A DNA stretch of 64,000 nt from a candidate division WWE3 bacterium RIFOXYC1_FULL_40_10 (GTDB lineage: Bacteria; Patescibacteriota; WWE3; UBA101185; UBA10185): contig MEWB01000001.1 of assembly GCA_001773215.1 (NCBI GenBank), positions 806,099 through 870,098 on the forward strand, given 5' to 3'. Numbering within the stretch: the first letter of the stretch is position 1; every line of letters begins with the position of its first letter. A program made the position numbers and the translations under genes. The notes under the pieces are model-generated. The model saw only the letters and a list, made by a program, of their open reading frames with translations. It had not been told where the DNA came from and made no database searches. Below are positions 10,009 through 32,300 of this stretch, one piece after another.

Positions 10009-10013
10009 AACGA

Positions 10014-10043
10014 GGCTCCGCCTTCGGCGGAGCCCTTTTCTTG
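10014..10043 (+). terminator. Rho-independent terminator after proS
   Basis: GGCTCCGCC-TTCG-GGCGGAGCC stem-loop followed by CTTTTCTT. Confidence 0.75.
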
Positions 10044-10069: not shown

Positions 10070-10423
10070 TTAGCTTCCTTCTCCCCCACCATATTGTGAT
10101 AAAGGATCGACATTGCCGAAAATATTAACGAATATTCTTCGGATAGCGAATACCAAGAACAAGCCAACTCCGCCAATGGCGGCATAGGTAACCCACTGTT
10201 GTGCTTTATCTATTGCCTGCTTGTCTCCTCTAGAGACAACGTATTGCAAAAAACCGAGTGCCAACATAACTACCACAACACCAAGACCCGCAATCATTAT
10301 CAAGTTGGTAATCCAGGTAAATAATTGGTCTAAGTTTCCTATATCAGCAGCAGGATCAATAGGCTCTGAGGGTATAGTTTGAGCATACACCGGAGTCAAA
10401 ATTTTATTTAATAAGTCCATCAT
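10070..10423 (-). CDS. Pilin-like small two-helix membrane protein (TrbC/VirB2-like topology); paralog of 20506..20847
   Basis: Long leader, then two hydrophobic helices separated by SRGDKQAIDKAQ; shared pattern GL..A.AF.QY..S.GD..A.D.AQ..VT...IRRI with the 20.5-kb gene. Confidence 0.4.
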   Translation of the reverse strand: MMDLLNKILTPVYAQTIPSEPIDPAADIGNLDQLFTWITNLIMIAGLGVVVVMLALGFLQYVVSRGDKQAIDKAQQWVTYAAIGGVGLFLVFAIRRIFVNIFGNVDPLSQYGGGEGS

Positions 10424-10470
10424 AAATTATTTCTTACTTGCCACCTCCCTCGTAGAGTAACCAAATATAT

Positions 10471-10794
10471 CTAAAATCCAACACCACCAAATAACGAGTT
10501 AATTATAACTCTTAGAATAACAACCGACAACAGAATGAAAAGCAGGCCCAAAAGTGCCGATGTCAAATTCTCCGAAGCAGCCTTTGTACTGTTTGGCGAA
10601 CCCTGACTCACCATGAAATCGTATCCTGACTTTACAACCATAGCCACACCGATAAAAATGCCGGCAGGATACAGAATTTTTGCCACAGCACCTATTAAAC
10701 CCTCGATAGATATATCCCTAACCTCCGGAGCCTCTTGGGCAAAAACTAGGAGATTTAGAAGTAGTAGTTCGGTAACAAATATTAATCTCTTCAC
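10471..10794 (-). CDS. Pilin-like small two-helix membrane protein with signal peptide; paralog of 20849..21301
   Basis: Signal peptide MKRLIFVTELLLLNLLVFA, two hydrophobic helices separated by SQGSPNSTKAASE loop. Confidence 0.4.
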   Translation of the reverse strand: MKRLIFVTELLLLNLLVFAQEAPEVRDISIEGLIGAVAKILYPAGIFIGVAMVVKSGYDFMVSQGSPNSTKAASENLTSALLGLLFILLSVVILRVIINSLFGGVGF

Positions 10795-10862
10795 CGTATA
10801 ATATTCTCAAAAAAGTCCTGATATGGCAAACATAACATGATAAAATAAGAAATACACCTGCT

Positions 10863-12647
10863 ATGAAAATTCGTACAACACTAATTATCTCTCTCATGTT
10901 TCTTTTTGGTGCAATAACGCCAACTTACGTTTTGGCAGATGACGAATGTAAGAAAATCGAGGATTTAGATAAGCGCGCCGAGTGTTACGAAGCAAAAATA
11001 GACAAAAAGGAAAGTGAATACAATTCAACTACAAAACAACTGGACGAGATTAGAACGCAAAAAGATAGTATTAATCAAAAAATTCAGGCACTTTCGTCGG
11101 AGCTCAATGTAACTCAGGGACAAATAGACGAAATCGACTCCGAGGTAGATGCCGTTCAGGCCGAATTGGAGATTATCAACGGCAAGATTTTGGATCGCCA
11201 GCAAAAACTGGGAGATAAAATAAATTTAAGAAACCGTATCATAAGAAGCTATTTTATAAAAAGAGTCGAAAGTGAAATTACCCTGTTTTTAATGAATAAC
11301 GGTTTTGAAAATGCCTCGTTTAACTACGCTTTTAGCAAGGCCGCAAATAATGAGACAAAGAAACTAATAGAAGGTTTAAATTTTGAAATAAGCAATTTCG
11401 AAGCCGATAAGGCTGAATCTCTGGAACTTAAGAATGACTTGGAAAATAGTTTAGCAAGCCTGGCCAAGTTAAGAGCTGATTTAGCCACTAAAAAGAACCA
11501 ACAACAAGAAGAATTTAAGGAAACTGTAGCAGACGAGACTAAAACAATTAATAAATTATCAAATCTCCAAAATGAAATTGACGAATTATCGGCTAAACAA
11601 CAGGATATCTTGAAACAAAAGTATGGGGATGAGTATGGATCAGTGGGAGATTTTGAATCTCCAACAGCTTCAACACCAAGCCCACCCTTTAAACCTGCAT
11701 TTGCGGCATTCAGTTACGGTGCGTATACACACTACAAAGGCATGAGCCAATACGGAGCTAAAGGACGAGCTGACAAAGGAGATGACTACAAGGAAATTTT
11801 GAAATTCTACTATAAAGTGGATGCTAAGGAAAAAGACGACTTTCCCAGCAAATTGTGTGTTGAAGGATACGGTGACCTAAGCTTCTCCAAATACCTCTAC
11901 GGCATAGCCGAAATGCCAAGCGACTGGCCAGATGAGGCCTTAAAGGCCCAGGCTATAGCGGCTCGTTCTTATGCGTACCGTTACTACAAAGCCGGAAAGT
12001 GTATTTGTACAACTCAAAGCTGCCAAGTTTATTCCAAGAGCAAAAGCGACAACCCACCTTCAAAATGGAAAAGCGCTGTTGACGATACTGAAGGTATCAT
12101 TTTGGACAACGACATAGTTGCCTATTATTCATCAACAACCGGTGGCTACATTGATAATGTGGGATGGGATACGGAATGCGGTAGCTCTTCTTGTTGGCCA
12201 AGCAAAGCCTATGAAAAGAGTTCTCCCTGGTTTTACAAGGCATGGTATACAAAAAGCTATAACAACAGTGACTCCTGTGGAAGAGGGCACCCTTGGCTTT
12301 CGGAAAAAGAAATGGCGGATATTTTAAATGCGTATGTGGTTTGGAACAAAGGCAACAATAGTGATAGAGACCACATTTCTCCTGTAACAACAAATTGTTG
12401 GGGGGGAGATCCCTACTCACTTGATGAGATGGCCGATAAGGCTGGGGATTATGGAACCAAATACACTAAAGTAACTTCAATAGATGTTGAAGTAAGTAAC
12501 GGGGGATACACTTCAAATGTTACTTTAAGAACCGATAATGGAACTGTTTCAGTTAACGGCGAGACATTTAAAACTGTTTTTAACTTAAGAGCTCCCGGAT
12601 ATTTATCAATAAAAAGCAAGCTTTTCGACATGGAAAAACGCGAATAA
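10863..12647 (+). CDS. Secreted coiled-coil protein with C-terminal SpoIID/LytB-type peptidoglycan-remodelling domain
   Basis: Signal peptide; ~250-aa coiled-coil; KYLYGIAEMPSDWPDEALKAQAIAARSYAYRYY ... SSTTGGYIDNVGW matches the SpoIID/LytB domain signature. Confidence 0.65.
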   Translation: MKIRTTLIISLMFLFGAITPTYVLADDECKKIEDLDKRAECYEAKIDKKESEYNSTTKQLDEIRTQKDSINQKIQALSSELNVTQGQIDEIDSEVDAVQAELEIINGKILDRQQKLGDKINLRNRIIRSYFIKRVESEITLFLMNNGFENASFNYAFSKAANNETKKLIEGLNFEISNFEADKAESLELKNDLENSLASLAKLRADLATKKNQQQEEFKETVADETKTINKLSNLQNEIDELSAKQQDILKQKYGDEYGSVGDFESPTASTPSPPFKPAFAAFSYGAYTHYKGMSQYGAKGRADKGDDYKEILKFYYKVDAKEKDDFPSKLCVEGYGDLSFSKYLYGIAEMPSDWPDEALKAQAIAARSYAYRYYKAGKCICTTQSCQVYSKSKSDNPPSKWKSAVDDTEGIILDNDIVAYYSSTTGGYIDNVGWDTECGSSSCWPSKAYEKSSPWFYKAWYTKSYNNSDSCGRGHPWLSEKEMADILNAYVVWNKGNNSDRDHISPVTTNCWGGDPYSLDEMADKAGDYGTKYTKVTSIDVEVSNGGYTSNVTLRTDNGTVSVNGETFKTVFNLRAPGYLSIKSKLFDMEKRE

Positions 12648-12759: not shown

Positions 12760-14157
12760 ATGACCAACCAAACAGCTCAAAATTTAGAGGAACTGTGGGC
12801 TTCTATACTGGGGGAAGCTCAGCTTAATATTGCTCCTGCCATATTTAACTCCTTTGTGTCACGCACGAGCCTGGATTCAATTGTGGATAATAGAGCCATT
12901 GTTGCCTGTTCCGACTCAATGGTTAAAAGCAACGTAGAAAAAAAGGCAAAACAAGAGCTTCTTGCTGCTCTAAACAAACGCTCCCAGAAAAAACTTGACC
13001 TTGAGTTAATCATTAAAAAAGTTAAGGCTAAAACTCTCGATACAGGACCTGTTGGGCCTCTATTCACTCCACCCAGGGACGAGGAAATAGTAGTTAAAGA
13101 AAAGCAACTTCAAGCGGGGTTAACTCCAAAATATACTTTTGAAAATTACATTTTAGGAGGGCACAACAATTTGGCGCATGCTATTGCTGTGGCAGTGGCA
13201 ACCAGGCCGGGGGAGCAATACAATCCAGTATTCTTTCACTCGGGAGTAGGTCTGGGAAAAACCCATCTTTTACAAGCAATAGGGAATAATATTCTTAGAA
13301 ACCACCCTGCCACAAAGATTATTTATACAACAGGGGAAACTTTCACAAACGAGTTAATCGATGCAATACAAAGCGGAAAGGCAGGTAAAAAGTCGAAATA
13401 TACTACAAACGAGTTTCGAAACAGGTACCGTCACGCTGATGTTTTTTTAATAGACGATGTTCAATTTATTATTGGAAAAGACGCTACTCAAGAGGAACTG
13501 TTCCACACGTTTAACTCCTTATACATGTCGGGAAAGCAGATCGTTATAACTTCGGATCGTCCTCCAAGCGAGTTCAAAAATTTGGCGTCTCGCATAACTT
13601 CCCGCTTTGCCATGGGAATAATTGCCGATATCCAAAAACCCGGATTCGAGGAACGTGTTGCAATACTACGAGCGCGGCGAGATTTCTTAGGGGAAGACAT
13701 TTCCGACGAAATAATTAGTTATATTGCTCAAAACATTAGTTCAAACATTAGAGAACTCGAGGGTGCTTATATGCAAGTTTCTGTGAAGGCTCATTCCAAT
13801 AACATGCAACCAACTGTAACCATGGCTGCGGAAGCTTTGGGACAAAGTTATAGAGAGACAAAGAAACCTACAGTAAATATCAATGAGGTATTAAAGGCTG
13901 TGTGCAATTATTATTCGGTAAATATTCCGGATATCAAAGGCCCAAGAAGACATAAAGAAATAGTTATTCCCCGCCAAGTTGCGATGTATCTTATGAAAGA
14001 GTTTACAGAAACACCTTACATTGCAATCGGGGATTTACTAGGGGGAAGGGATCATACAACAATAATGCACGGCGCTGAAAAAATACATCAAAAAGTAACT
14101 GAAAAAGGAAAAATCTATACCGATGTTGCTAACATCAAACAAACTTTGGGCTATTAA
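12760..14157 (+). CDS. dnaA: Chromosomal replication initiator protein DnaA
   Basis: AAA+ Walker A GVGLGKTHLLQAIGN, YTFENYILGGHNNLAHAIA, C-terminal DNA-binding domain. Confidence 0.9.
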   Translation: MTNQTAQNLEELWASILGEAQLNIAPAIFNSFVSRTSLDSIVDNRAIVACSDSMVKSNVEKKAKQELLAALNKRSQKKLDLELIIKKVKAKTLDTGPVGPLFTPPRDEEIVVKEKQLQAGLTPKYTFENYILGGHNNLAHAIAVAVATRPGEQYNPVFFHSGVGLGKTHLLQAIGNNILRNHPATKIIYTTGETFTNELIDAIQSGKAGKKSKYTTNEFRNRYRHADVFLIDDVQFIIGKDATQEELFHTFNSLYMSGKQIVITSDRPPSEFKNLASRITSRFAMGIIADIQKPGFEERVAILRARRDFLGEDISDEIISYIAQNISSNIRELEGAYMQVSVKAHSNNMQPTVTMAAEALGQSYRETKKPTVNINEVLKAVCNYYSVNIPDIKGPRRHKEIVIPRQVAMYLMKEFTETPYIAIGDLLGGRDHTTIMHGAEKIHQKVTEKGKIYTDVANIKQTLGY

Positions 14158-20505: not shown

Positions 20506-20847
20506 ATGAACCAACCTTCTGGTCCTTTTGATATGCTTAAAGACGTTGTCGGAGAATCGGAAATACCCGCGCCCGGTCATATTACTTCAGTTTGGGATAT
20601 CGCCGCGGCAATCGCAAATTTTATGACTCTTATGGCTGCCGGATTGGCAATCGCCGGATTGGCTTATGCCTTTGTACAGTATGCGACCAGTCAGGGAGAT
20701 CCTAAAGCTGTGGATAGGGCTCAAAAGGCTGTTACAGGGTCTGTGGTGGCCTTCGTTGTCACTTTTTTGCTGTGGTCTATCCGAAGAATAATAATTGGTA
20801 CCTTAACGCAAGAAGGAGTATATATCGGAAATGATCCGGGGATTTAA
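20506..20847 (+). CDS. Pilin-like small two-helix membrane protein (TrbC/VirB2-like topology) with ~35-aa leader
   Basis: Two hydrophobic helices separated by ATSQGDPKAVDRAQKAVTG; paralog of 10070..10423. Confidence 0.4.
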   Translation: MNQPSGPFDMLKDVVGESEIPAPGHITSVWDIAAAIANFMTLMAAGLAIAGLAYAFVQYATSQGDPKAVDRAQKAVTGSVVAFVVTFLLWSIRRIIIGTLTQEGVYIGNDPGI

Positions 20848-20848
20848 T

Positions 20849-21301
20849 ATGAAGAACATAATAACTTTTTTAGTAACCATAGCTTTTATTTCAACCCTAA
20901 CGGGTTCGTATGCTCAGGCAACTTGGAGAGATTATTGTGAGTTGGAAGCAACTTCCCAAGACCCTCCTCCAGAGGCTATTATATGCCCGATAGGTAAACT
21001 TCTTACTATTGGAGTATATGCTGTGGGGGCAGTTTTTGTAGCTGTTATGGCTTTTGGCGCTTGGAAAATGTCGATGGCTTTGGGAGATGCCCGTGCTTTG
21101 GAGGGGGCTAAGATGACCTGGACTTATGCAGTAATGGGCCTTTTTATTGTATTGGCCTTTTTTGGGTCTTTTTCTATGATATCAGGCATGCTTGGAATTC
21201 GAAGTGATACCTTTATTGCCACTCCGGAAGCTTTGGTAGATAAAATGGCAGAAGGCTTGTCTAATCTTCTGGAAGTAGCTCAAGTAACAACCACTCCGTA
21301 A
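20849..21301 (+). CDS. Pilin-like two-helix membrane protein with signal peptide; paralog of 10471..10794
   Basis: Start refined to MKNIITFLVTIAFISTL (signal peptide) directly after the upstream stop; two helices separated by ALGDARALEGAK. Confidence 0.4.
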   Translation: MKNIITFLVTIAFISTLTGSYAQATWRDYCELEATSQDPPPEAIICPIGKLLTIGVYAVGAVFVAVMAFGAWKMSMALGDARALEGAKMTWTYAVMGLFIVLAFFGSFSMISGMLGIRSDTFIATPEALVDKMAEGLSNLLEVAQVTTTP

Positions 21302-21309
21302 GTCTAAAT

Positions 21310-21765
21310 TTATTTATAAAGTCCTCCCTCAAGAAATTCGGTTTCAATCGTGGGCATAATATCGATTTTATTTACACTAATTTCGTAGCTTTTAGTTTTG
21401 GTTAAGGTCACTTTATATGTGTTTTTTCCTACAGGCACGTATTCGGGAGCCACATAAACTACAATTGTTGAGTTTCTATCGATCCTACTGCTAAATTTTA
21501 GAGGGGGCTCTATTGAGACACTTATGTCCTCGTCTTCGATATCTCTGTCTAAATAAAATTTCAAAATGAGAGCGGCTCCCCTATCAAGTTCTATATCTTC
21601 TAATATTTCAGGAGAGGTCTTTAGTACAACAGGGTCTCTTATATTTACCTGTTTATAATTTGGTGTGATGTTTTCTCCTCCAGGGTTTATAAGATTCCAA
21701 AAGTACCAAAATCCCCCGATGATTGCTGTCAATATTATTAGTCTTAATATATTTTTTTTATCCAT
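21310..21765 (-). CDS. Bitopic membrane protein: N-terminal TM helix plus ~110-aa beta-rich extracytoplasmic domain (VirB8-like topology, speculative)
   Basis: Start refined to MDKKNILRLIILTAIIGGFWYFW with AGGTAGGAAG SD; 5 nt downstream of the giant gene stop. Confidence 0.45.
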   Translation of the reverse strand: MDKKNILRLIILTAIIGGFWYFWNLINPGGENITPNYKQVNIRDPVVLKTSPEILEDIELDRGAALILKFYLDRDIEDEDISVSIEPPLKFSSRIDRNSTIVVYVAPEYVPVGKNTYKVTLTKTKSYEISVNKIDIMPTIETEFLEGGLYK

Positions 21766-21770
21766 ACTTC

Positions 21771-24700
21771 CTACCTTGATGGAGCGATGCAAACGTGTGA
21801 TTCAGGAACCACTTGATCTCCGTCTATTGTTAATTCTACATGAACATGGTCGTATATGGCGCCTGTGGGGTAGGGTGAAAGTACTGTACCTATTTGGTCC
21901 CCAGGTGAAAATGATCCTGATGGACATGAAACCAAATGGGATACCCCCATCTCATATTTTCCTTCATCACCGTCTCCTATAAAACCCGCCATAACACCGG
22001 CAGAGGCGCCTTTATACGTTAAATTCCAACATCTTGACGAATCCCATGTTGTTACGCCCCCAATAGAAGGCGCAATTGCTGTGTAGTCGGATGTGTTAGG
22101 GTGTACATCTACAGCATATCCCCAACCATCTCCAAGAGGGCTTTGATCAGAGCACCAGTTATTAGAGTTATAAGGGCCTTTAATTTTATCCGGCCACTGT
22201 GGTATAGAGTAGGAGCATTCGTAATTACATGAATCCCTGTCAACATGACCGCACCAATAATCATTTGATCCATGGGCGTACATATCTGCCTCATTTCCGG
22301 CATAGGAGTGTCCCCATCCGGCTCTAGTGTAATGCTCTAAAACGCAGGGGTAATCTCCGGTTTCTTCTTCCGCAGGGCAAACCGGATTTCCTGAATCATC
22401 TTGATCACATGCATCTCCTTTTTCAGTGTTCGGGCAACATTGGTCATTGCAGCAAATGCCTTCGCAGTCCTCTTCGCAGGAACCTTCCTCCGGAGGCTCA
22501 GCCACCTTACAGACCTTGTCAGGTGCACATGTGGCCTCCTCATCGCAGCATATTGGGTTGCTGGCACAGCTTTGTCCCGTTGGAATACACTTTTCTTTCA
22601 TTGGAGGATAAATGCTAAAAGTAGCGTGAGCTTCTCCTTGTACACTCGGTATTGGGGGGTCTTCCGATGTTCCCGGAATATCTATTGTGGCAGTCGCTAC
22701 TATTCTGGAATTCATTTTTCCTAGCGCTTTTTTTCCATTGTTTGCCGGCATTTTAATTGGCGTCTCCGAATTGGTTGCAAATGCCGACGTGCTAATGCCT
22801 CCTCCGTCTGTATACACAACGCTTACATCGCCATTCAGATCTATCTGTTCTACAACCAAAGTGTATCCTGCGGAACCCTTTATTCGGGTTAAATCGATTT
22901 TTGGTTCAACGACTAACTCATACCTAGCCTCAGTTCCCTCACTTGTATATGGTTCGGGGGGGTTAGTAATATCCACGCCGTTATGGGTTACTATCACGTC
23001 TAGTCGAACATCAGCTACTTGTGTGATTGAGCCGGTAGCTGCATCGAGTACGGAAGAGTCGGAGTTTGAGGCTAGTTGTTTGTTTGCATCCGCATACCGT
23101 ATTTCGTTAATTAAGACACCTTCTTGGTCTTCCGCTAAATTAGAAAACCATTTAGTAGGATCAAGCGGTGACAGTGCTGACCCTATAATAGTTTGAAGAA
23201 GAATCACAAACAACGCCATTGGAGCCATAATTAAAAGAGTTATATACGAAAGGGTTTTAATTATTTGTTGAATTTGTTTATCTACTGCTCTGAAAGCTTT
23301 TGTGAGGTCGCCTGTAGCGATACCCGAAATCAAATCCTTGCCAAACACAAGAGTTTTCTTAAAAAGTATTCGCAGGATCGGAACTAAAAATTTTTCTACC
23401 AGCGGAGCTAAAAAGGCCCCAATACCCCCGGTTAAAGCCCCCAATCCAAACTTTAACCCAAGCTTAAGCAAAAGCTTACTCAGCATGTTCTTAATTGCAG
23501 TTGATAATCCTCTAAATGCGGCACCGAAAACCTTGGTTAGACCCTCGAAACCCAATTCCTGTAAGCGGTCCTGCCACCCGGGGATCATCATTAGCCACTT
23601 TCCTATCGCGTACCTTTTCCCCCCAATTACTACGCCAAAATTTTTTATAGCCGTTTGAACCTGGTTAAGTTTTGACCAAACTCTCTGAAGGTGTCCTATA
23701 TATTTTGTTGTTATTTTGAAGGTATCCGGATTGGCATTCTCCCTTTTTAAGGCATAATAGAGAGCAAGCATAAAACCTTCGCTATCTAAATCCGCACCAT
23801 TAAACTTATTTAAGCCCCGTAAATAATCCTTAAATTCTTTCAGTTGCTTGTCAAAATATGCGCCGTCTTCAGCTGATAGTTTTATTCCCAAAGCTTGAAA
23901 TATAGCCAAGCGGGTAGCATTGTCTGAAAACTTGGCTTTTTCTGCCAACAAAGACGCCAAAAGCTTTGGATCCAAGTGCATCAAGTCCCCCATTAAGTGT
24001 GTAGCATTAGATGTTCTCGCAGCATCTCCGCTTCCGACGACAAATTCGAAAATTTTATCTCCAAGCATTCCGTTCGCGGTGATATTTACGCCATTTACAA
24101 GCCTTAAAGCTTCTTGCCTATTCTTTTCAAGTTTTGCATAAATTGTAGAGTTTAATCTTTTTAGGTAATCTTCTTCCGATTCGTTTTTTAGCTTTTCTAA
24201 TACCAACTTTGATCTTACGCGTTTATAATATTCGGCATCCTCTTCCCATCGCCACTCTTTTGTCAACGGATCCTTTACCCTGACCTTAGCCAAGGTTCCC
24301 TTTGCGGCCTTATTTCGGTAACTTAAATTTATTCCATGCGATAAATCCGCGTTTCCCAGCTTAACATCGAATTTGTACTGGTGCCCAGAGCCCAAATTAT
24401 CAGTGTTTTCCCTTTCGTCTACTATCAGGCCAAAATAGTGAGTTCTTTTAAGGGTTCTATCAATTATTGTTCCTGTAGTGACCTTGTCGACCCATGGTTT
24501 AAGAACTTTATTGTATAGATGTCTCTGTACCAGTTTTCCCTCGGCCAAATCGTCTATTAACTGTTCACAATCGCGCTGTATACGCTCTGTTTGCTCTCCC
24601 CTAAGTAAAGCCATAACCTTTTTGGATCTGGTTCCATCGGCTTCTTGCAAAATATCCGCCATTCCTCTCGCACCCCTTTTTGAGTAAATTAGGCCGTTTT

Positions 24701-26348
24701 CTATTCTTAAGTCAAACTCTCTTTTTAGATTAGGCCCCAAGAATTCATCCCCGCCTTCAAGTTTTCTTCCGCGGTAGGTTACGTTATCGATCAAAGCGTG
24801 TTGAACTCTCGCTGCGCTTCTTACATCGGCGCCTTTTATGGAAGCCCCAATGTCTTGGTATACTCCTGTTACTTTCTTTTTGTTGTCCGAAACTATACTT
24901 CCGGCAGAATCCCTCTCTACAAACCGGGTTAAGTTACTTCTTACACCATCTACTTTTTTGTCTAGTTTCTCAACATATCCTTCCAGATTTGACAAGTAAC
25001 CATTATGCTTATTGGTTACAGCCCTTAGTTCGGCTATTCTGGCTCTCACATCGGCTGTTCTTTCTTGGACTTGTTCCAGAGTTCCCGATCCGCATCTCAA
25101 AATCTTATCCCCCTCTATCTTGACGCCAATTTCCTGATCGGTGACAGTTGCCCACTTTGTAGGATCGGGTGCTCTCCCCTCAGCTTTAGCTTTATTAAGT
25201 TCTGCTTTTTGTTTCTCCCCTAATACTCGTATTCTGATGTTTTCAATATTCTGCAGTGTTTTGTCTCTAAGCTCATCCGACATTACTTCATCAGGATTCA
25301 CAATCCAGTCGTTTTTGGTTTTTAGTAAGTTTGCGATGGGAGCGGAGGCGTCTGCTTGGCTATAGATACCCAAAAATCCCTTTTGTAGTCCATGTTCCCC
25401 TCTTGCCTCTTCAAGAGCGGCCAGGGATTTTGATAGTGCCAATTCTTTTTGAAATACGGCAAATTGAGTTTGATCATGGGCACTTGAACCTGCTAATACA
25501 CTCGAGAGTTCTTGTTCTATAGCGTCAAAAGAAGCTACTCTAACTTTGTCCTGTGCCATTCCTCTGGTAAATTTTACTTTCTCAAAGGCTTCAAGATTTA
25601 TCATCTTGGCGGCCACATCTCCAAAGGCGGCATCCAGTTCCAAATCCCTGCTTCTTTGGATCGGATCACTGGACTTTCCCAAATACAAAGGGTTAGCTGT
25701 TCCGGCAGGTTCTCCAAGAGCCCTGCCTCCCTTCGAGCGGGCTTCCGCGATTGCTCTTTCAATTCCAGACATCGAGTGCTCTTTGCCTTCGTCATCTACC
25801 CAAGAAACGTATTCGTTTTTTAGTAGGGTTTCTTCCCACGCATCCTTGCTGTATTTGGTGGCAAAATCTCCAAAGTTGCTTTTAGCTAAATCTTTCACAT
25901 CCACACCTGTTCCTGCTTTCACCCAGTCGTTAAGGGTGTTCTTTACCTGAGTCTTGAAATTTTCACTAACAGTTCCTTTGCCGGAAACCCAGTCCAGTGG
26001 ATTTAACGAAAGGTTCACACCAAATGCTCCCGGAAGTTCACCGTAGTCATAATCGTAGAATTCACCAATATCCGAATTTACAGGTTTAATAGTTGCTTTG
26101 AGTTTGTTTTTAAAGTCATTAATTATTTCATCCCTAATCTGCCCGGGAAGTCCCTCTATGTCAAAAGCCATATCATCTATTGCTTGTGTAAAATCTGCAA
26201 AAGGGTACTCGATAGGTTTTACATAATCTCTGGGTTGAAACGGTTTTGGTTCTTTTTCTCCTTGGTAATAACCGGGGTAAAAGGGACTCATACCGGTTTT
26301 ATCGGCGGGTTCCGGTATATATCCTGCATAAAAGGGGTTTACTGCCAT
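21771..26348 (-). CDS. Giant 1,525-aa membrane protein: ~1,000-aa N-terminal coiled-coil-rich cytoplasmic region, TM cluster, extracellular Cys-rich module and C-terminal M23/LytM-like peptidase domain
   Basis: No signal peptide; hydrophobic helices about 1,000-1,100 aa in; Cys-rich CCDEEATC...SCEEDCEGICCNDQCC; C-terminal GYAVDV...GVSHL...GDQIGTVLSPYPTGAIYDHVHVEL resembles the M23 HxxxD/HxH region. Confidence 0.55.
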   Translation of the reverse strand: MAVNPFYAGYIPEPADKTGMSPFYPGYYQGEKEPKPFQPRDYVKPIEYPFADFTQAIDDMAFDIEGLPGQIRDEIINDFKNKLKATIKPVNSDIGEFYDYDYGELPGAFGVNLSLNPLDWVSGKGTVSENFKTQVKNTLNDWVKAGTGVDVKDLAKSNFGDFATKYSKDAWEETLLKNEYVSWVDDEGKEHSMSGIERAIAEARSKGGRALGEPAGTANPLYLGKSSDPIQRSRDLELDAAFGDVAAKMINLEAFEKVKFTRGMAQDKVRVASFDAIEQELSSVLAGSSAHDQTQFAVFQKELALSKSLAALEEARGEHGLQKGFLGIYSQADASAPIANLLKTKNDWIVNPDEVMSDELRDKTLQNIENIRIRVLGEKQKAELNKAKAEGRAPDPTKWATVTDQEIGVKIEGDKILRCGSGTLEQVQERTADVRARIAELRAVTNKHNGYLSNLEGYVEKLDKKVDGVRSNLTRFVERDSAGSIVSDNKKKVTGVYQDIGASIKGADVRSAARVQHALIDNVTYRGRKLEGGDEFLGPNLKREFDLRIENGLIYSKRGARGMADILQEADGTRSKKVMALLRGEQTERIQRDCEQLIDDLAEGKLVQRHLYNKVLKPWVDKVTTGTIIDRTLKRTHYFGLIVDERENTDNLGSGHQYKFDVKLGNADLSHGINLSYRNKAAKGTLAKVRVKDPLTKEWRWEEDAEYYKRVRSKLVLEKLKNESEEDYLKRLNSTIYAKLEKNRQEALRLVNGVNITANGMLGDKIFEFVVGSGDAARTSNATHLMGDLMHLDPKLLASLLAEKAKFSDNATRLAIFQALGIKLSAEDGAYFDKQLKEFKDYLRGLNKFNGADLDSEGFMLALYYALKRENANPDTFKITTKYIGHLQRVWSKLNQVQTAIKNFGVVIGGKRYAIGKWLMMIPGWQDRLQELGFEGLTKVFGAAFRGLSTAIKNMLSKLLLKLGLKFGLGALTGGIGAFLAPLVEKFLVPILRILFKKTLVFGKDLISGIATGDLTKAFRAVDKQIQQIIKTLSYITLLIMAPMALFVILLQTIIGSALSPLDPTKWFSNLAEDQEGVLINEIRYADANKQLASNSDSSVLDAATGSITQVADVRLDVIVTHNGVDITNPPEPYTSEGTEARYELVVEPKIDLTRIKGSAGYTLVVEQIDLNGDVSVVYTDGGGISTSAFATNSETPIKMPANNGKKALGKMNSRIVATATIDIPGTSEDPPIPSVQGEAHATFSIYPPMKEKCIPTGQSCASNPICCDEEATCAPDKVCKVAEPPEEGSCEEDCEGICCNDQCCPNTEKGDACDQDDSGNPVCPAEEETGDYPCVLEHYTRAGWGHSYAGNEADMYAHGSNDYWCGHVDRDSCNYECSYSIPQWPDKIKGPYNSNNWCSDQSPLGDGWGYAVDVHPNTSDYTAIAPSIGGVTTWDSSRCWNLTYKGASAGVMAGFIGDGDEGKYEMGVSHLVSCPSGSFSPGDQIGTVLSPYPTGAIYDHVHVELTIDGDQVVPESHVCIAPSR

Positions 26349-26405: not shown

Positions 26406-27734
26406 ATGAGTTTTTTTAGAAGACTGCCTTACATTTTTAGCTTGTTATTAATACTAGCTCCTGTGTTGTCGACCCCGGTACTCGCTGCAAAATGCGACTT
26501 GCCTCAATGCGAACTAGAAAAAAAATCATCAAGATTTAGAATTTCCAAGTTTGGTATTAACCTACCAAACATGATAGGACAGGCAATCGAATCAATTCCC
26601 GAGGTACTTTTCGATGCTATATCCGGCAGGACTCTTACCGAGGTTGTTCAGTGTGAGGATAAACTCAGGGCCAAGGTAGGACTAACTGGAGATGTAGGGT
26701 GGGATCCTGCCTTTGGTTCTTCAGAGGAGGTTTGTAAAGCAGTGGCAGGAGAGATAGCGTTTTTCGGTGGTTTTGGGACAAGCCCTATTCCCGGAAGTGC
26801 CCTAGGCATGGCATATGGTTTAGAGCATGGTTTAAAATCCACTCCCCCTCCGGTTAACCTTGCTTATTTTTGGAATCGCACCATAGAGGACCTTCCGATA
26901 GCTAACAAGGCATTAGCGGCCGATGTGCAGTACAATTCACCTCTCCTAGATGTTTTTTACTCGTTATGGCAATTATCCCGAAATGTATCCCTGGCTCTTA
27001 TGTCGGTAATATTGCTTGTAATAGGCATAATGATCATTTTACGAAAAAAAGTGAACCAGCAGGCTGTTGTTACAATTCAGTATGCCATTCCAAGGATAGT
27101 AGTGTCATTTATATTAATACTGTTTAGCTATCCCATAGGTGGTATTATGGCAAGTTTAGGGTGGAATTTGTTTTCCAATGCATGGAGGATAGTATTCGAG
27201 TTTATGGGGGATAATATCTCCGCCCCTGTTGATGCGACAGGGAAAATTATGGGTTTTTCGGGGGCTTTTTCCCTCCTTGCCATTGTGGTATCTGGCGTTT
27301 TGTTCTTTAGCGGAGCAGGAGTGGTCTTGCTTACGTTTGCTATAGGATTACTAATAGTTCTTATTCTGATGTTTGTGTATCTTAGCGTTAAAGCATTTCT
27401 AATCTATTTAAAACTCATCATGTCGATAATGTCTGCACCTATAGAGTTTGTTATAGCCGCAATACCAGGCAGTGAAACCAGAATATCCGCTTGGTTCAAA
27501 CGTATGGCCATCTATGTACTTACTCTGTTTGGGATGGGGGCAATGGTTCCTATAGGAATTCTGGTTAGTTTCAAACTGCTGGAAGGTTCTGTAAACGCCA
27601 ATCAGCTGGGGTGGGGCTACCTAATAGGCATGTTCGGCCCTGTGTTTGCTATTCTTTACTGCTTTGGTGCTGCAATTAGAATGGAAACAACAATAACTAA
27701 GTTTATCGATCCTGACTCACTAAAGAAGAGATAG
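26406..27734 (+). CDS. Polytopic membrane protein with signal peptide, ~180-aa extracytoplasmic N-domain and at least 6 TM helices (VirB6/TrbL-like topology, inferred)
   Basis: Signal peptide ending VLAAKC; Cys-containing N-domain; dense TM helices in the C-terminal 250 aa. Confidence 0.4.
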   Translation: MSFFRRLPYIFSLLLILAPVLSTPVLAAKCDLPQCELEKKSSRFRISKFGINLPNMIGQAIESIPEVLFDAISGRTLTEVVQCEDKLRAKVGLTGDVGWDPAFGSSEEVCKAVAGEIAFFGGFGTSPIPGSALGMAYGLEHGLKSTPPPVNLAYFWNRTIEDLPIANKALAADVQYNSPLLDVFYSLWQLSRNVSLALMSVILLVIGIMIILRKKVNQQAVVTIQYAIPRIVVSFILILFSYPIGGIMASLGWNLFSNAWRIVFEFMGDNISAPVDATGKIMGFSGAFSLLAIVVSGVLFFSGAGVVLLTFAIGLLIVLILMFVYLSVKAFLIYLKLIMSIMSAPIEFVIAAIPGSETRISAWFKRMAIYVLTLFGMGAMVPIGILVSFKLLEGSVNANQLGWGYLIGMFGPVFAILYCFGAAIRMETTITKFIDPDSLKKR

Positions 27735-27737
27735 AGC

Positions 27738-30700
27738 TTATTTACAAGCGTTTAGTATCTCGCTTATTTTGCCCCCTGCTGCGTAAACAGCATAATCCGG
27801 GTTGCCGCTATTGTATTCACCCTCAAGGTATACCGGCCAATAATTAAGTGATTTCATGGCTCCTGCCGTTATTTCCCAAGAACCGGGACCCATTCCCATC
27901 CAACTATCGTAATTGCAGGTGTTAGGTGCATCTCCCATCACCTGCTCACTAGCGTATCTTTCTGCAAAGTTTCTGATACCTGCCGCTGTAACATATGCAG
28001 AGTCTAGGAAGTTGCATCTGTGTGCCGTTTCTCCTCTTCCCATAGAAACCGTGTTTAATGCATCATAGGCTGTTCCGAAGGTATTTCCGGGGTCATTGCG
28101 CGTTTTAATATTTTCAAAGGCAGGCCCTGTTAGATAAAAAGGACCTTGTTCATTATAGTTTAGATCGTTACAGTAATAAGTTTTTCCGTTGCGTGTTTTC
28201 ACGTATTTGTCTAAGCTCGACCACCAGGGAGTTGTTCCAACCTGAATCGAGCTTAAACTCCAAATCAGATTTTGCTCTTCTCTACTGATATTGCTGGCAA
28301 GGCTGATACGGCTTTCCGGTTTTGATATGTCTCCCTGTTTCCAGTAGTCCGCAAAGTCGTTCAACCCTCCGGTTATCTTCATCTGTGCCAATAACAGCGA
28401 TGCAGGAACCTGGAAAGCGTTTGCTGCCCCTTGAAGAACTTTTACAAAAGTTGGGGAAAACGTGTAGGTAGCAGGATCTACACCTAATGCCGTTTTGCAG
28501 GCTGCTGTGTTTAAAGCTGAAAGTCCACATCCCGGAACGAGTTTGTCCAGATCAGCCTCTGCAGGATTAGGGACATCTTTAAGTGAGCAATCCCATCCAT
28601 AATCAAGAGTGTTGGTAGAACAAACATTTGGAGTAGGATATTCGATATCAGGTGCGTATCTTCCGTCTGTCGCGTATTCCTGCATTTCCTGGTATTTAAC
28701 TCCTGATCCGGGGGCCTTATCCTTTTCAACACCAATTGGTGTAGTTCTCTGCTCTGTTCCTGCTACATCTTCCGCGGTAGACATTGCAGGTATATTAAAT
28801 CCCCCTGCAACCATAGTTACGTCGATGGGCATACAATAACTTGGGTCGTCACTCACCGGGCAGTACTCACCTACTTCTCCAATAGATCTCGGGTTTTTCA
28901 ATGCCAGGTACTCGGCTCCAAGCATGGACTCTGTGTAAGGGTAGTCATCCGGTTCTTCTTCTGTCTCTGTAGCGTCCGATGCCTGCTCATTTTCTGCATT
29001 TTGTCTTTGTGGCACAATATCCATAGTAGCCATCATTTCGGCCGAGCCATCACACTCTTTAAATTTGCCCTGTGCCCCAAACGGCCCTGCTACTTGAACG
29101 GTGCAATAAACTTCATCTGATACATACCAGGCGTTAGGACACTGATACTGTTTCCCGGGTTCCGAGTTACCGTTCTTATCTTCGCACTCGCCTGTTGCAC
29201 AGCATTCATTTGTCCCTGCCAAGCAGTTTTGCGGCGAGGGGGTATCACCTTTACAGGTGCTGGCGCATATATTGCCGGGATCTCCACTTCCGCAGCCACT
29301 TTCACAGCAAACACTCACGTTTTCGTTACCCTCACCATTTACCGGACAACACGTGTGATCACATTCCTTATCGCAACTTTTTCCCTCCGGAGCTTTATCT
29401 ATTAGAGTTGTTTTTTGTTTCCAGGCACAATACACCCATTCGAATTTATTGCAGCTGCTTTCGTTTACACCGTCCCCTGGCTTTTTACAGTCAACCGGTC
29501 TGCAAGTCCTGCTTATAGGTACATTGGGTCCCATTTTCTCTCCATTGATTGTAACTTCTCTTCCTATGTTTATGTCCTCCGTGAAAGGCAGTTTTTTATC
29601 ATCCTCATCAGAGCCCGCGTCCTCATCCCCGCAGTATTCATTCATTGGTATTACCGTCCCAAACTTTTCTGCCACTTTTGAGCTATGGTCTTCTCCTCTA
29701 GGTTTGTTGCTGTTATCTCCGAGCCCATTTCCCCAAGGATAACAGTAATTTTCTCCCCAAGGGGATACGACCCTATCATCTTTAATTTGTGTTTTAAAGG
29801 TAGAGTCATTGGCGGGTAACGGAAAGAATTTAGCAAAACTTTCCTCAGTTACAGCTTCATAAACACTTCCCCCATCCTCAGTTTCTATGTGATTGTAGTT
29901 GACAATAAAGTTATCCATTGGTTCAGGACGTAACTCAGCAATTGTCCCGCCTCTGTCGAAGAAGTTCTTGTATTTGGCTGTTTTACCTTGTAACAAAAGG
30001 AGAAACTGTTCAATAACGGTAAATCCGCTTACCTTTATTTCTCCACTACCTGCAGAAGCATTCATTACTGCATCATACAGATGCGTTCCTGCGCTTTTAG
30101 CCTTTTCTAGTAAGTCCCCATCCAGTTCAAGAAGCTTTTCAGATCTATTAATTGCTGCGGTGGTGTATCTGATATCCGAGGTTCCCATCGAGGCGGGGTC
30201 AGTTGGAGGTGCAGGGGTATTCGCTTGAGGATTTTGCAAATAGTGATGTTCGTCCAGTTGTACTACACCTGTTTCATCATCTATATATTCATTTGATCTA
30301 TAAAATTCCAATTCGTTATCCTTACTTATAATTATCGAATTAATCTTATCCTTTAAATTGTTAGCATTAGAAAGCATGCAGTAGGTTTGAATTTCGCCTC
30401 CAAACTTAACCAGGGGATAATCTTCTCTATATAGTAAGTCTGTGAATGCGGGGTCGTCTTTTACACCAAAGCCCATGGTGGTGGTGTCGGTAAACTTGGG
30501 ATCTATCGGATAGCTTTCCTGGGATACAGTAAGCCCTTCTGCGTCGGAGATATCTTTTATATTTGATGAAATTTGTGCCCCAAAAGTTACCGAGCCCTTT
30601 CCTTCTTCTGGGTTTGAAGCGGGGTCGTTTTTGTAGCCACCAAAAACAATAGCATTGCCGCTTTTTAAGGGATCTTGGCTTTCCATTAGGGCACCTAGCG

Positions 30701-32300
30701 GATCGCTCTTTGATGGATCTGCGGGGTTTGCTTGATAAGAAGACCCTACAATGCCGTAGGTGCTGGATGAAAGTGCGGTGCCTGCCTTGGCGCTGTAATA
30801 CATTAGCATTTCAGGGCTCCAATAGTCGCTTCCCAAAGAGCACTCGCCGCCGCCGCAATCCGGATCCCACGGTTTTTTAATTTGGCTAATTTTCACTTCT
30901 TCGTCAGTATCAGGCTTAACGCAAATCACAGGGTCATACCCGGTTTCAACGTAATATTTATCCCAAATATCTTCAAAAGTGTTATAGCTGCTTAAGGACA
31001 CCCCGGGTCCTGTTGTAGTCATTTCGCTTCGATATTCTTCAGTGTCCTTTGTGGGGTCAGGAAGGTCCTCCGGATTAACTCCGTAATTTATTCCAAAAGG
31101 ATCAGTGCACTTTTTGTATGTTTCACAACTTATTCTTGGGAAAGTGTCGGGATCTAGGAACTTTCTTATCTTTATTCCCAAGCCCTCATTTTCCTGTAAA
31201 CACATTCCAAAATGTGTTTGATTAAAGGCATAAGTAGCATTTGGATTTTGGGCATATCCAACCAATTCTAATCTAAAAGTCATTTCCCGTGGAAATAGCA
31301 TAACCGCCTTAGCAGGTAATGCCGGGTAGAATGACTCAATTACATAAGGTTTCGCCTTATTTTCACCTTCTATGCCTCTAGTGTAAGTGTCCAGCTCGTA
31401 TTTATCAGGGTCGCCGGTATCACACATGTTTTTCCACCAAATATCTTGACTTCGCCTGTCATATGTTAATGTTTTGCAGTCTTTTGACCAAAAGGAACCC
31501 TGATGGACAGATCCGGAGTTTGCTGCCCCCGCTATTACACTTGGCACTTTAGCAAAAATGTCCTCATAGTTATTTGGCGTAAACCTTTGGTCAGCCCTTT
31601 TTACGCCGCCTACAAAAGTGGTCTCTATTACTGTTTGATTCTTTTTAGCTTCTGATATTTCAACTGTAGACGGCACCTTTCCGGTTCCTTGGTTTCCCAT
31701 GTCGCAGTTAATATGAACGTTACCCTTTAGGTCCATTATGCGAAATATTGATGGGGCAGGAGGAGGTGTGGCTGGGTCCCGGACAGCTATATCATTCGGG
31801 CATCTGGAGTAAATACTAAGATACGGATAGCTTTGAGTGGAATCCAAGCGGATGATGTCATCTAAATCATAAGTGCCGTCTTCCCGCTCGCAAGCCGTAA
31901 CTAAGTATCTAATTTGCTGGCCGCCGACTACTCTCATTGGGCAGTAAAAATAACCGTCTTCGTTCGAATAAGTAGAACAATAAGGGTGAATGATGTTGCC
32001 GTCTAGCTTACATGTAGGCGAGGAAGGATCACATTCGTATATAAACACAGATACGTTTGGGACACCCTTATGTGACATTTGCATATTCCCTGACGCGGCA
32101 GACATAGCCTCGTCTTCTTCAAAAGCTTCTTCAGGATCGTGGCTTCGAATAATCCCGCATACAGAATTTTCATTTCCATTTGCCGGTTTAGGGCACCTTG
32201 AGCCTTCAATAAATTGGGAATCGTACATATTTTCGGCTAGGGTTTGTGTTCCAAACGCAAACAACAGGAATAATGTAACTAAAACCGCTTTATATTTCAT
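27738..32300 (-). CDS. Giant 1,520-aa secreted Cys-rich protein (signal peptide, no TM) with a C-terminal globular domain of uncertain type, possibly lysozyme/transglycosylase-like
   Basis: Signal peptide MKYKAVLVTLFLLFAFGTQTLA; central module SCDKECDHTCCPVNGEGNENVSVCCESGCG homologous to the module in the 1,525-aa neighbour; C-terminal 'VPASLLLAQMKITGGLN' weakly SLT-like but lacks the catalytic Glu. Confidence 0.5.
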   Translation of the reverse strand: MKYKAVLVTLFLLFAFGTQTLAENMYDSQFIEGSRCPKPANGNENSVCGIIRSHDPEEAFEEDEAMSAASGNMQMSHKGVPNVSVFIYECDPSSPTCKLDGNIIHPYCSTYSNEDGYFYCPMRVVGGQQIRYLVTACEREDGTYDLDDIIRLDSTQSYPYLSIYSRCPNDIAVRDPATPPPAPSIFRIMDLKGNVHINCDMGNQGTGKVPSTVEISEAKKNQTVIETTFVGGVKRADQRFTPNNYEDIFAKVPSVIAGAANSGSVHQGSFWSKDCKTLTYDRRSQDIWWKNMCDTGDPDKYELDTYTRGIEGENKAKPYVIESFYPALPAKAVMLFPREMTFRLELVGYAQNPNATYAFNQTHFGMCLQENEGLGIKIRKFLDPDTFPRISCETYKKCTDPFGINYGVNPEDLPDPTKDTEEYRSEMTTTGPGVSLSSYNTFEDIWDKYYVETGYDPVICVKPDTDEEVKISQIKKPWDPDCGGGECSLGSDYWSPEMLMYYSAKAGTALSSSTYGIVGSSYQANPADPSKSDPLGALMESQDPLKSGNAIVFGGYKNDPASNPEEGKGSVTFGAQISSNIKDISDAEGLTVSQESYPIDPKFTDTTTMGFGVKDDPAFTDLLYREDYPLVKFGGEIQTYCMLSNANNLKDKINSIIISKDNELEFYRSNEYIDDETGVVQLDEHHYLQNPQANTPAPPTDPASMGTSDIRYTTAAINRSEKLLELDGDLLEKAKSAGTHLYDAVMNASAGSGEIKVSGFTVIEQFLLLLQGKTAKYKNFFDRGGTIAELRPEPMDNFIVNYNHIETEDGGSVYEAVTEESFAKFFPLPANDSTFKTQIKDDRVVSPWGENYCYPWGNGLGDNSNKPRGEDHSSKVAEKFGTVIPMNEYCGDEDAGSDEDDKKLPFTEDINIGREVTINGEKMGPNVPISRTCRPVDCKKPGDGVNESSCNKFEWVYCAWKQKTTLIDKAPEGKSCDKECDHTCCPVNGEGNENVSVCCESGCGSGDPGNICASTCKGDTPSPQNCLAGTNECCATGECEDKNGNSEPGKQYQCPNAWYVSDEVYCTVQVAGPFGAQGKFKECDGSAEMMATMDIVPQRQNAENEQASDATETEEEPDDYPYTESMLGAEYLALKNPRSIGEVGEYCPVSDDPSYCMPIDVTMVAGGFNIPAMSTAEDVAGTEQRTTPIGVEKDKAPGSGVKYQEMQEYATDGRYAPDIEYPTPNVCSTNTLDYGWDCSLKDVPNPAEADLDKLVPGCGLSALNTAACKTALGVDPATYTFSPTFVKVLQGAANAFQVPASLLLAQMKITGGLNDFADYWKQGDISKPESRISLASNISREEQNLIWSLSSIQVGTTPWWSSLDKYVKTRNGKTYYCNDLNYNEQGPFYLTGPAFENIKTRNDPGNTFGTAYDALNTVSMGRGETAHRCNFLDSAYVTAAGIRNFAERYASEQVMGDAPNTCNYDSWMGMGPGSWEITAGAMKSLNYWPVYLEGEYNSGNPDYAVYAAGGKISEILNACK

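Follow-up and report, generated by a model that had tools for sequence, protein, structure and literature searches.

What are the small genes that lie beside cell-wall enzymes in the dnaA region of candidate division WWE3 bacterium RIFOXYC1_FULL_40_10, an uncultured member of the candidate phyla radiation, and what does their position beside those enzymes mean? In the 64,000-nucleotide stretch that we analysed (the window; genes are named here by their lowest coordinate in it), two such genes, 10070 and 10471, lie back to back with gene 10863, which encodes a secreted coiled-coil protein with a SpoIID/LytB domain, and two more, 20506 and 20831, lie close to a gene for a giant protein. A reading made from the letters alone (the sequence-only reading) had seen a pair of pilin-like genes present twice, each copy beside a peptidoglycan hydrolase or remodelling enzyme, and had offered holins as an alternative. 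The open reading frames (ORFs) at 10070, 10471 and 10863 lie exactly where that reading had placed them. The account that we favour, and that we hold with moderate confidence, is that a VirB2-like pilin array and a divergently transcribed SpoIID-family wall-opener form one coupled system, the ancestral cluster of which has been split in this genome.

In profile searches against Pfam, protein 20506 scored exactly the gathering cut-off of PF18895, the pilin family of type IV secretion systems (T4SS_pilin; 26.6 bits, E = 6.3e-6), and 10070 (25.8 bits, E = 1.2e-5), 10471 (19.6 bits, E = 1e-3) and 20831 (11.9 bits, E = 0.24) scored below it; the pilin-like nature that had been suggested thus reaches the curated threshold for one of the four proteins. 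Note that a WWE3 database protein 100% identical to 10070 (P0001) carries PF18895.6 as its precomputed Pfam annotation, and that a much longer orthologue in a close relative (the long pilin of locus L004) scored 25.9 bits. Protein 20506 also matched NF045849, the Mbov_0395 pilin-like conjugal transfer protein of a mycoplasma integrative and conjugative element, under that model's own cut-off (E = 1.6e-5). Moreover, a family hidden Markov model (HMM) built from the four window proteins and their relatives matched all four strongly, 20831 included (E = 4e-31). By BLASTP, 10070 aligned with 20506 (E = 1e-11, 39% identity over 62 residues), carrying the motif GL..A.AF.QY..S.GD..A.D.AQ...IRRI, and more distantly with 10471 (E = 4e-4); 10471 and 20831 gave no pairwise alignment. 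The clear paralogy that had been claimed between the two pairs is therefore evident for 10070 and 20506 and absent at the pairwise level for 10471 and 20831, with all four falling into a single HMM family. At the level of HMM comparison, the small proteins of the window belong to the VirB2/TrbC-like T4SS_pilin family.

The pilin-domain proteins of the window are predicted to adopt a two-helix hairpin fold. In an AlphaFold2 (AF2) model of 10070, computed from a 20-sequence alignment, residues 31–63 and 68–102 form the two arms of a helical hairpin, with predicted local distance difference test (pLDDT) scores of about 76–85 in the helices; the intervening loop reads S-R-G-D, and the S.GD..A...AQ loop is conserved in the alignments. 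When this hairpin was compared with the PDB using Foldseek, no match reached E ≤ 0.001 (the best was E = 2.6, helical hairpins being non-specific), and the A. pernix conjugation pilus 8dfu stood at rank 31 (E = 8.6, TMt 0.62). The termini differ among the four proteins: 10070 has a short leader ending VYA|Q; in 10471 the pilin domain comes straight after a classical signal peptide (..VFA|QE); 20831 has a classical signal peptide together with a C-terminal helical extension; and 20506 has no signal peptide and a C-terminus that reads ..DPGI. Among orthologues, a (V/S)(Y/F)A|Q junction after the leader is conserved at array positions 1, 2 and 4, and the endings ..PGF, ..VGF or ..DPGI are found at positions 1 and 3 (IPGF/G in Microgenomates). 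We take these leader junctions and C-terminal motifs to recall the processing sites of VirB2/TrbC.

The family extends well beyond the window. In a profile search of the whole protein library, about 30,666 cluster representatives matched at E ≤ 1e-3. Members elsewhere form arrays of five to six genes (loci L086 and L089, in each of which a neighbouring gene also weakly matches PF04956, TrbC), and in locus L087 a member lies beside a PrgI/VirB3 protein and a TrbL_3/VirB6 protein. Many relatives (P0141–P0287; P0016 and P0017) contain two to eight tandem pilin domains in one polypeptide of up to about 1000 residues; these may be arrays fused into multi-hairpin proteins, or else artefacts of gene calling.

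The divergence of the small genes from a secreted coiled-coil SpoIID/LytB protein, likewise read from the sequence, was borne out by a 68-bp gap, by profile matches and by the structure model. The 594-residue product of 10863 matches PF08486 (69.9 bits, E = 2.9e-19; cut-off 23) and TIGR02669 (SpoIID_LytB; 109.9 bits, cut-off 83.3), which establishes at the profile level that it contains a SpoIID domain. In the AF2 model (44 sequences) an N-terminal signal/anchor helix is followed by a hairpin of two helices of about 105 residues each (35–143 and 148–254), a disordered linker and, at 279–594, the well-predicted catalytic domain. The SpoIID structures 4rwr, 5i1t and 5txu match the protein at E values of 3e-7 to 3e-5, in permuted order: the GHGVGMSQ-type segment, which is C-terminal in the canonical domain, lies at residues 287–333, ahead of the N-terminal catalytic block at 339–395. 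That block, AEMP..EALKAQAIAARSYA, aligns with the SEMN..EALKAQALAARTF block of 4rwr, and its E350-M351-P352 is invariant in the 44 homologues; the SpoIID motifs YSSTTGGY and GMSQYGA are kept as well. Judging from these alignments the catalytic domain is circularly permuted relative to the solved structures, because a de-permuted sequence, in which residues 270–319 were moved to the C-terminus, aligned colinearly across the artificial junction. The permuted layout, with the GMSQYGA segment first (window positions 11670–12647, residues ~270–594), is common to the 44 aligned homologues. We predict that the protein is a lytic transglycosylase.

We then considered how regularly the two kinds of gene occur together. 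A search with the SpoIID protein in one genome per GTDB species gave 80 loci, all of them full-length matches of 34–63% identity, from WWE3 and Microgenomates (Collier-, Davies-, Woese-, Levy-, Curtiss- and Roizmanbacteria); look-ups of pilin homologues added five more, for 85 in total, in which ORFs were called and scanned with the pilin HMM (the loci are labelled L001 onwards). Linkage was counted over the 73 loci in which the SpoIID gene has one or more genes upstream of it. The gene immediately adjacent to, and divergent from, the SpoIID gene encodes a pilin domain in 55 of these 73, and one lies within 8 kb in 61, so that the co-occurrence of small proteins and hydrolases that had been anticipated is found across genomes. 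Pilin-domain genes make up 205 of the 517 genes upstream of SpoIID and none of the 528 genes downstream. The divergent gap has a median of 54 bp and is no longer than 250 bp in 53 of 56 loci, many of which have a TGnTATAAT-like box in it; in the window, promoter-like sites in the gap comprise a TG-extended -10-like site at 10818–10846 on the plus strand and a site at 10829–10800 on the minus strand. Conserved divergent adjacency of pilin and SpoIID genes is thus an observed feature of these genomes, the counts support a linkage of the pilin genes to a wall-cleaving enzyme beyond chance, and the pairing is a real module, since it recurs in about three quarters of the related genomes.

Could this adjacency be no more than inherited gene order? 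The main rival explanation, which we judge unlikely and nevertheless take seriously, is that the synteny has been passed on without functional coupling and that the SpoIID protein is a housekeeping or division hydrolase acting under an FtsEX-like partner, in the manner of EnvC, PcsB and RipC. The long antiparallel helical hairpin that AF2 places ahead of the enzyme is consistent with such a role, as is a weak NCBIfam match to the PcsB coiled coil. A Foldseek search with the full model returned mostly coiled coils, among them EnvC in the FtsEX–EnvC complex (8tzl_E, E = 0.04), the N-domain of RipA, and PcsB, none of these three being significant (E = 0.04–0.5), and some homologues have been named 'CwlO-like' by JGI (Joint Genome Institute). 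The SpoIID family is in addition very large (2636 homologues at E ≤ 1e-10), and genes downstream of SpoIID (families c2 and c6, a family of about 600 residues termed w10, and SmpB) are likewise conserved, in 46–48 loci. On the other hand, the pilin/SpoIID pair has stayed together in 31 combinations of outer flanks, in WWE3 and in several Microgenomates lineages, with changes on both sides, which argues against simple inertia. The adjoining gene belongs specifically to a 'long' subfamily of pilin-domain genes and is divergent across a very short gap. Moreover, a non-exhaustive search saw no FtsE or FtsX among the proteins of the window or of the loci scanned.

Some loci depart from the usual arrangement. 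In six Levybacteria-like loci a LytR_C-like gene adjoins SpoIID in place of the pilin gene. In L069 and L085 the pilin-domain gene runs in the direction of SpoIID instead of diverging from it; these two loci also contain, about 5–7 kb downstream of SpoIID, genes for the sole large P-loop proteins near any SpoIID locus (L069:14838-17054 and L085:10019-12259; 738–746 residues, with GATGSGKS at about residue 410, an FtsK/VirB4/VirD4-like motif). In 46 loci SpoIID is followed, two to three genes on, by a gene of the family of about 600 residues mentioned above (window 10-1710; L006:10672-12486), whose members have an N-terminal cytoplasmic domain, one transmembrane helix and a C-terminal NHL/beta-propeller-like ectodomain. 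In relatives this gene is preceded by genes for membrane proteins of 190 and 80 residues; the window has it relocated by about 9 kb, and neither the 190- nor the 80-residue gene is seen beside SpoIID there.

The two loci of the window turned out not to be copies of one another. In relatives the common order is a VirB6-like gene (homologue of 26406), the giant gene (homologue of 21771), a small gene, pilin genes 4-3-2-1 and the divergent SpoIID gene, and it is seen contiguously in L006-L011, L014, L017-L020, L023, L030 and L033. Pilin genes 4, 3, 2 and 1 are the homologues of 20831, 20506, 10070 and 10471, four distinct orthologous positions in the alignments: orthologues of 10070 occupy array position 2 in 13 loci, and orthologues of 20506 adjoin that position. 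Genes 10070/10471 and 20506/20831 are thus the two halves of one four-gene array that is contiguous in most relatives, and not a duplicated pair as had been claimed. It follows that two loci each beside a hydrolase, which the sequence-only reading had counted as independent support, derive from one ancestral cluster and amount to one observation. The contiguous order is probably ancestral because it is widespread; the arrangement with proS beside the 10070-type gene and dnaA 3' of SpoIID is found only in the window and its closest relatives (L001-L005). Comparison of gene orders indicates that the window array was split two and two by a rearrangement near the origin. (The block orders did not resolve into one single inversion.)

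The pilin-domain gene next to SpoIID has a character of its own. In 45 of 55 loci its product is at least 200 residues long (median 285, maximum 647), with the pilin domain always at the C-terminus; the other array members have a median length of 129 residues. In the nearest relatives (L001, L003, L004 and L005; L001:6327-7964, L004:2078-3796 and L005:4855-6552) the proximal protein has 545–572 residues and carries a Cys-rich ectodomain between signal peptide and hairpin, and the proximal members of Microgenomates share the motifs RYA.CD.CGLC, W..C..CLY and Y..LGC and a C-terminal ..IPGF/G. At 107 residues the product of 10471 is the shortest of 56 proximal members. Comparison with the closest orthologues indicates that it has undergone an in-frame loss of an N-terminal Cys-rich ectodomain of about 430 residues, which they have kept.

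These long members also give rise to a different explanation, in which there is no pilus. The hairpin would anchor Cys-rich ectodomains in the membrane, or act there as a scaffold for their display, and would place or control the SpoIID enzyme and the giant peptidase, independently of VirB4. In the Bacillus engulfment machine SpoIIM scaffolds SpoIID and SpoIIP, and SpoIID-family enzymes need a partner amidase or peptidase, as in SpoIID/SpoIIP. In these terms the VirB2-like hairpin would have been re-used in WWE3 and Microgenomates outside a canonical T4SS, in a self-contained module for breaching the envelope and for adhesion, of SpoIID/SpoIIP/SpoIIM-like function, the parts of which would be the long pilin, the permuted SpoIID enzyme and the giant protein with its swappable CHAP, M23 or HExxH heads; with it, ultrasmall epibionts would cut through peptidoglycan, either their own or that of the host. 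The N-terminal ectodomain of the proximal member, which measures 100–550 residues in 45 of 55 loci and leaves the pilin domain at the very end of the protein, fits a display function, in several Microgenomates loci one long member is the sole pilin-domain gene beside SpoIID, no ATPase is encoded nearby, and the CHAP and M23 modules on the neighbouring giant could partner the SpoIID enzyme. The arrays are nevertheless dominated by short members that have no ectodomain, family members in other lineages adjoin T4SS core genes, and the proximal member of the window has lost its ectodomain yet is retained intact. We consider a scaffold of this kind improbable, and we give the re-use of the hairpin in a VirB4-independent module equally little credence.

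The genes on the far side of the array bear on what the system might contain. The giant protein has a helical N-terminal part of about 900 residues without a signal peptide, a cluster of transmembrane segments at about 900–1060, a Cys-rich region and a C-terminal domain; its family has 18 orthologues, adjacent to the array. The C-terminal heads of the orthologues include CHAP (4), M23 (2), C39_2 (1) and an HExxH module (about 8), and across the window and L006-L034 they look as though they have been swapped on a conserved chassis of N-terminal part and transmembrane cluster. An M23 peptidase had been read from the sequence at 21.8 kb. In the window protein M23 was not found directly, its C-terminus having no sequence match in Pfam or the PDB; that C-terminus is homologous by BLAST to the C-termini of the L023 (E = 4e-7) and L016 (E = 2e-6) proteins, and L023 matches M23 (PF01551) under the cut-off (E = 1.2e-4). 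L017 has an M23 match at E = 1.9e-8. An H-V-H-V-E motif is present near the C-terminus of the window protein, for which a divergent M23-like domain is plausible from this transitive homology. The giant family gave no match to TrbL_3.

The 442-residue protein has a signal peptide, an ectodomain of about 190 residues and multiple transmembrane helices, and its family lies beside the giant gene in 20 loci. It had no match in Pfam, NCBIfam or the PDB; its family matched the TrbL_3 (PF19590) protein of L087 with an hhalign probability of 88% (E = 2.8e-6, 36 columns), which makes it a candidate VirB6/TrbL-like channel subunit. (Sequence and profile searches of Pfam, NCBIfam and the PDB with the VirB6-like and giant proteins gave only coiled-coil noise.) The 160-residue protein of 21310 is the positional equivalent of the small genes between giant and array in relatives; it has no Pfam match and no sequence homology to those equivalents. 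No domain was found in the 1520-residue protein by Pfam, NCBIfam or PDB sequence searches, and its C-terminal residues ~1236–1495 (the last ~260 residues) are conserved in the equivalent gene beside the VirB6-like gene in L011, L014, L018 and L020.

We propose the following account of how the parts would work together. An ancestral four-gene array near dnaA would have lain between the divergent SpoIID gene and the giant and VirB6-like genes, and would then have been split in the lineage of the window. The array products would sit in the membrane as two-helix hairpins and, by analogy with VirB2, would polymerise into a surface fibre or conduit, so that pilus formation by the window pilins is suggested by analogy. 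The array and the gene for the predicted coiled-coil SpoIID lytic transglycosylase point away from each other across one short, putatively shared promoter region, and the two may be co-regulated. The SpoIID enzyme would most likely cut glycan strands, opening the peptidoglycan (of the cell itself or of its host) for the fibre or the ectodomains of the long pilins to pass, probably in cooperation with the CHAP/M23-type peptidase module of the giant protein. The pairing of pilin-like subunits with a wall-opening enzyme that the sequence-only reading had suggested thus stands as a linkage, in 55 of 73 loci and 31 contexts and with hydrolase modules on orthologues of the giant; the opening of the wall as such is what we infer from it.

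Several observations weigh against this account. The Pfam scores of the window pilins only reach the gathering threshold or fall under it, and Foldseek gives the hairpin no significant match, placing an archaeal conjugation pilus well down its ranking. The loci are phylogenetically related, so that the counts are not independent events; 12 of the 73 SpoIID loci have no upstream pilin-domain gene, which also fits passively inherited synteny, and in other lineages pilin arrays occur without a SpoIID neighbour (L086 and L089). An N-terminal coiled-coil hairpin joined to a hydrolase is the layout of the FtsEX-controlled division hydrolases EnvC, PcsB and RipA. Finally, neither the window nor the 8 kb around the arrays yielded a VirB4/VirD4-type ATPase when every ORF of 350 residues or more in the 85 loci was searched for the Walker-A motif; the candidate VirB6-like gene is the only T4SS core gene that accompanies the window array, and its status hangs on the 36-column hhalign match.

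The alternative that the small proteins are holins, and the SpoIID and M23 proteins the lysins of a prophage-type lysis cassette, starts from the presence of small two-transmembrane proteins beside wall hydrolases. None of them matched a PHROGs holin family at E ≤ 0.1, a tblastn search of 50,697 phage records and 72,556 plasmids found nothing, no relative of the SpoIID protein was found in IMG/VR, and the window holds no phage structural genes. The genes are chromosomal, beside dnaA, proS and tsaD, and their orthologous positions are conserved across a phylum-level group. Given these null results and the conserved chromosomal context we rejected the holin alternative, which we regard as very improbable indeed.

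VirB2-like pilin arrays near dnaA have already been published for Patescibacteria. A 2025 survey (PMC12102498) describes arrays of 2–11 genes, about 25% identical, that are common among Microgenomatia and Saccharimonadia and in many cases close to dnaA; it reports that VirB1 homologues are rarely linked to the arrays and that other glycosidases may substitute for them, the presumed role of T4SS-associated hydrolases being local opening of the wall. The pilin array is essential in S. epibionticum (PMC10633639), few machineries besides a T4SS-like system with a pilin array have been shown to be indispensable to Patescibacteria living as epibionts (PMC10633639, PMC11665869), and reviews highlight these arrays (PMC12857230, PMC11665869). 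The part of the genome table of PMC12102498 that was covered contained no WWE3 genome, the sole string match being a Levybacteria genome with the same sample code, and NCBI places WWE3 outside its 'Patescibacteria group'; to judge from that part of the table, WWE3 seems not to be covered by the survey. No paper of the library that could be searched names both SpoIID and Patescibacteria.

Compared with the Patescibacteria arrays (S. epibionticum SEML1_0006-0019; Quinonero-Coronel et al. 2025), the genes described here belong to the same PF18895 family and are likewise tandem divergent paralogues (~25–35% identical), chromosomal and near dnaA, with no relaxase or coupling protein nearby and with peptidoglycan hydrolases in the vicinity. 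They differ in that the WWE3 cluster has no VirB4, VirB3 or VirB8, also within 8 kb, that the array of the window is split, that the proximal member is normally an ectodomain–pilin fusion, and that the conserved neighbour is a coiled-coil permuted SpoIID enzyme, which that literature does not mention. Like the VirB2/TrbC/TraA pilins of diderms, the proteins have about 100 residues, a hairpin of two hydrophobic helices joined by a short loop that is polar and basic and, in three of the four window proteins, an Ala|Gln-type leader motif (VYA|Q, VFA|Q, SYA|Q), whereas the host is a monoderm, VirB5, VirB7, VirB9 and VirB10 are absent, and solved pilins give no significant sequence or structure match. 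The giant family resembles PrgK (pCF10), TraG (pIP501) and VirB1 analogues in comprising membrane-anchored multidomain proteins with CHAP or M23 modules encoded beside T4SS-like genes; unlike PrgK and TraG, the giant has 1000–1500 residues, a cytoplasmic N-terminal part of about 900 residues and no SLT domain, and glycan cleavage would come from the separate SpoIID-family protein rather than from an SLT/lysozyme domain.

The SpoIID-family protein itself shares with SpoIID of Bacillus and Clostridium, and with LytB, a domain above curated thresholds and the conserved motifs of the catalytic block, but its domain is permuted and carries a fused coiled-coil hairpin some 220 residues long, the WWE3 host is non-sporulating, and no SpoIIP or SpoIIM homologues were identified. 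With the FtsEX-regulated proteins EnvC, PcsB, RipC/RipA and CwlO it has in common a signal peptide, an antiparallel coiled-coil hairpin and a C-terminal peptidoglycan hydrolase domain; where they have LytM, CHAP or NlpC/P60 as catalytic domain it has SpoIID, the Foldseek matches have E ≥ 0.04, and no FtsEX partner was identified.

The features discussed are collected below.

Table. Positions, strands and sizes of the pilin-array, SpoIID and neighbouring features in the window.
Feature	Position	Strand	Size or remark
Intrinsic-terminator-like hairpin, bidirectional	10013..10035	.	between proS and pilin operon
Pilin-domain gene, array position 2	10070..10423	-	117 aa
Pilin-domain gene, SpoIID-proximal, array position 1	10471..10794	-	107 aa
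Divergent intergenic region, 68 bp	10795..10862	.	putative back-to-back promoters, pilin operon and SpoIID gene
Secreted coiled-coil SpoIID/LytB-family protein	10863..12647	+	594 aa
Pilin-domain gene, array position 3	20506..20847	+	113 aa
Pilin-domain gene, array position 4	20831..21301	+	156 aa; probable start 20849, giving 150 aa (P0008)
Single-pass membrane protein gene, 3' of giant gene	21310..21792	-	160 aa
Giant protein gene	21771..26348	-	1525 aa
Polytopic membrane protein gene, candidate VirB6/TrbL-like	26406..27734	+	442 aa
Secreted Cys-rich giant protein gene	27738..32300	-	1520 aa

The window contains dnaA (12760-14157) together with proS, leuS, tsaD, smpB, dnaG and rpoD, and a gene for a MurT-type Mur ligase with its downstream partner. 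With these genes the stretch is an ordinary part of the chromosome near the origin rather than a mobile element. The terminator-like hairpin has a GC-rich stem of 9–10 bp with T-runs on both strands, and could act as a shared intrinsic terminator for proS and the pilin operon. Between leuS and proS lies a Ser/Thr protein-kinase-domain gene (7717-8739; Pkinase, E = 5.6e-16); none of the relatives examined has a kinase gene at the equivalent position.

To the published arrays our analysis adds a conserved SpoIID partner, the circular permutation of its catalytic domain and an ectodomain-bearing proximal pilin, the ectodomain of which has been lost in the window, all of which appear unreported, and the splitting of the array in this genome. 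For WWE3 and Microgenomates, the conserved back-to-back SpoIID enzyme stands as a concrete candidate for the wall-opener that has been missing, and the proximal pilin with its ectodomain could be an adhesin or a tip subunit. The two loci of the window represent one system split near the origin, which matters for the annotation of such genomes.

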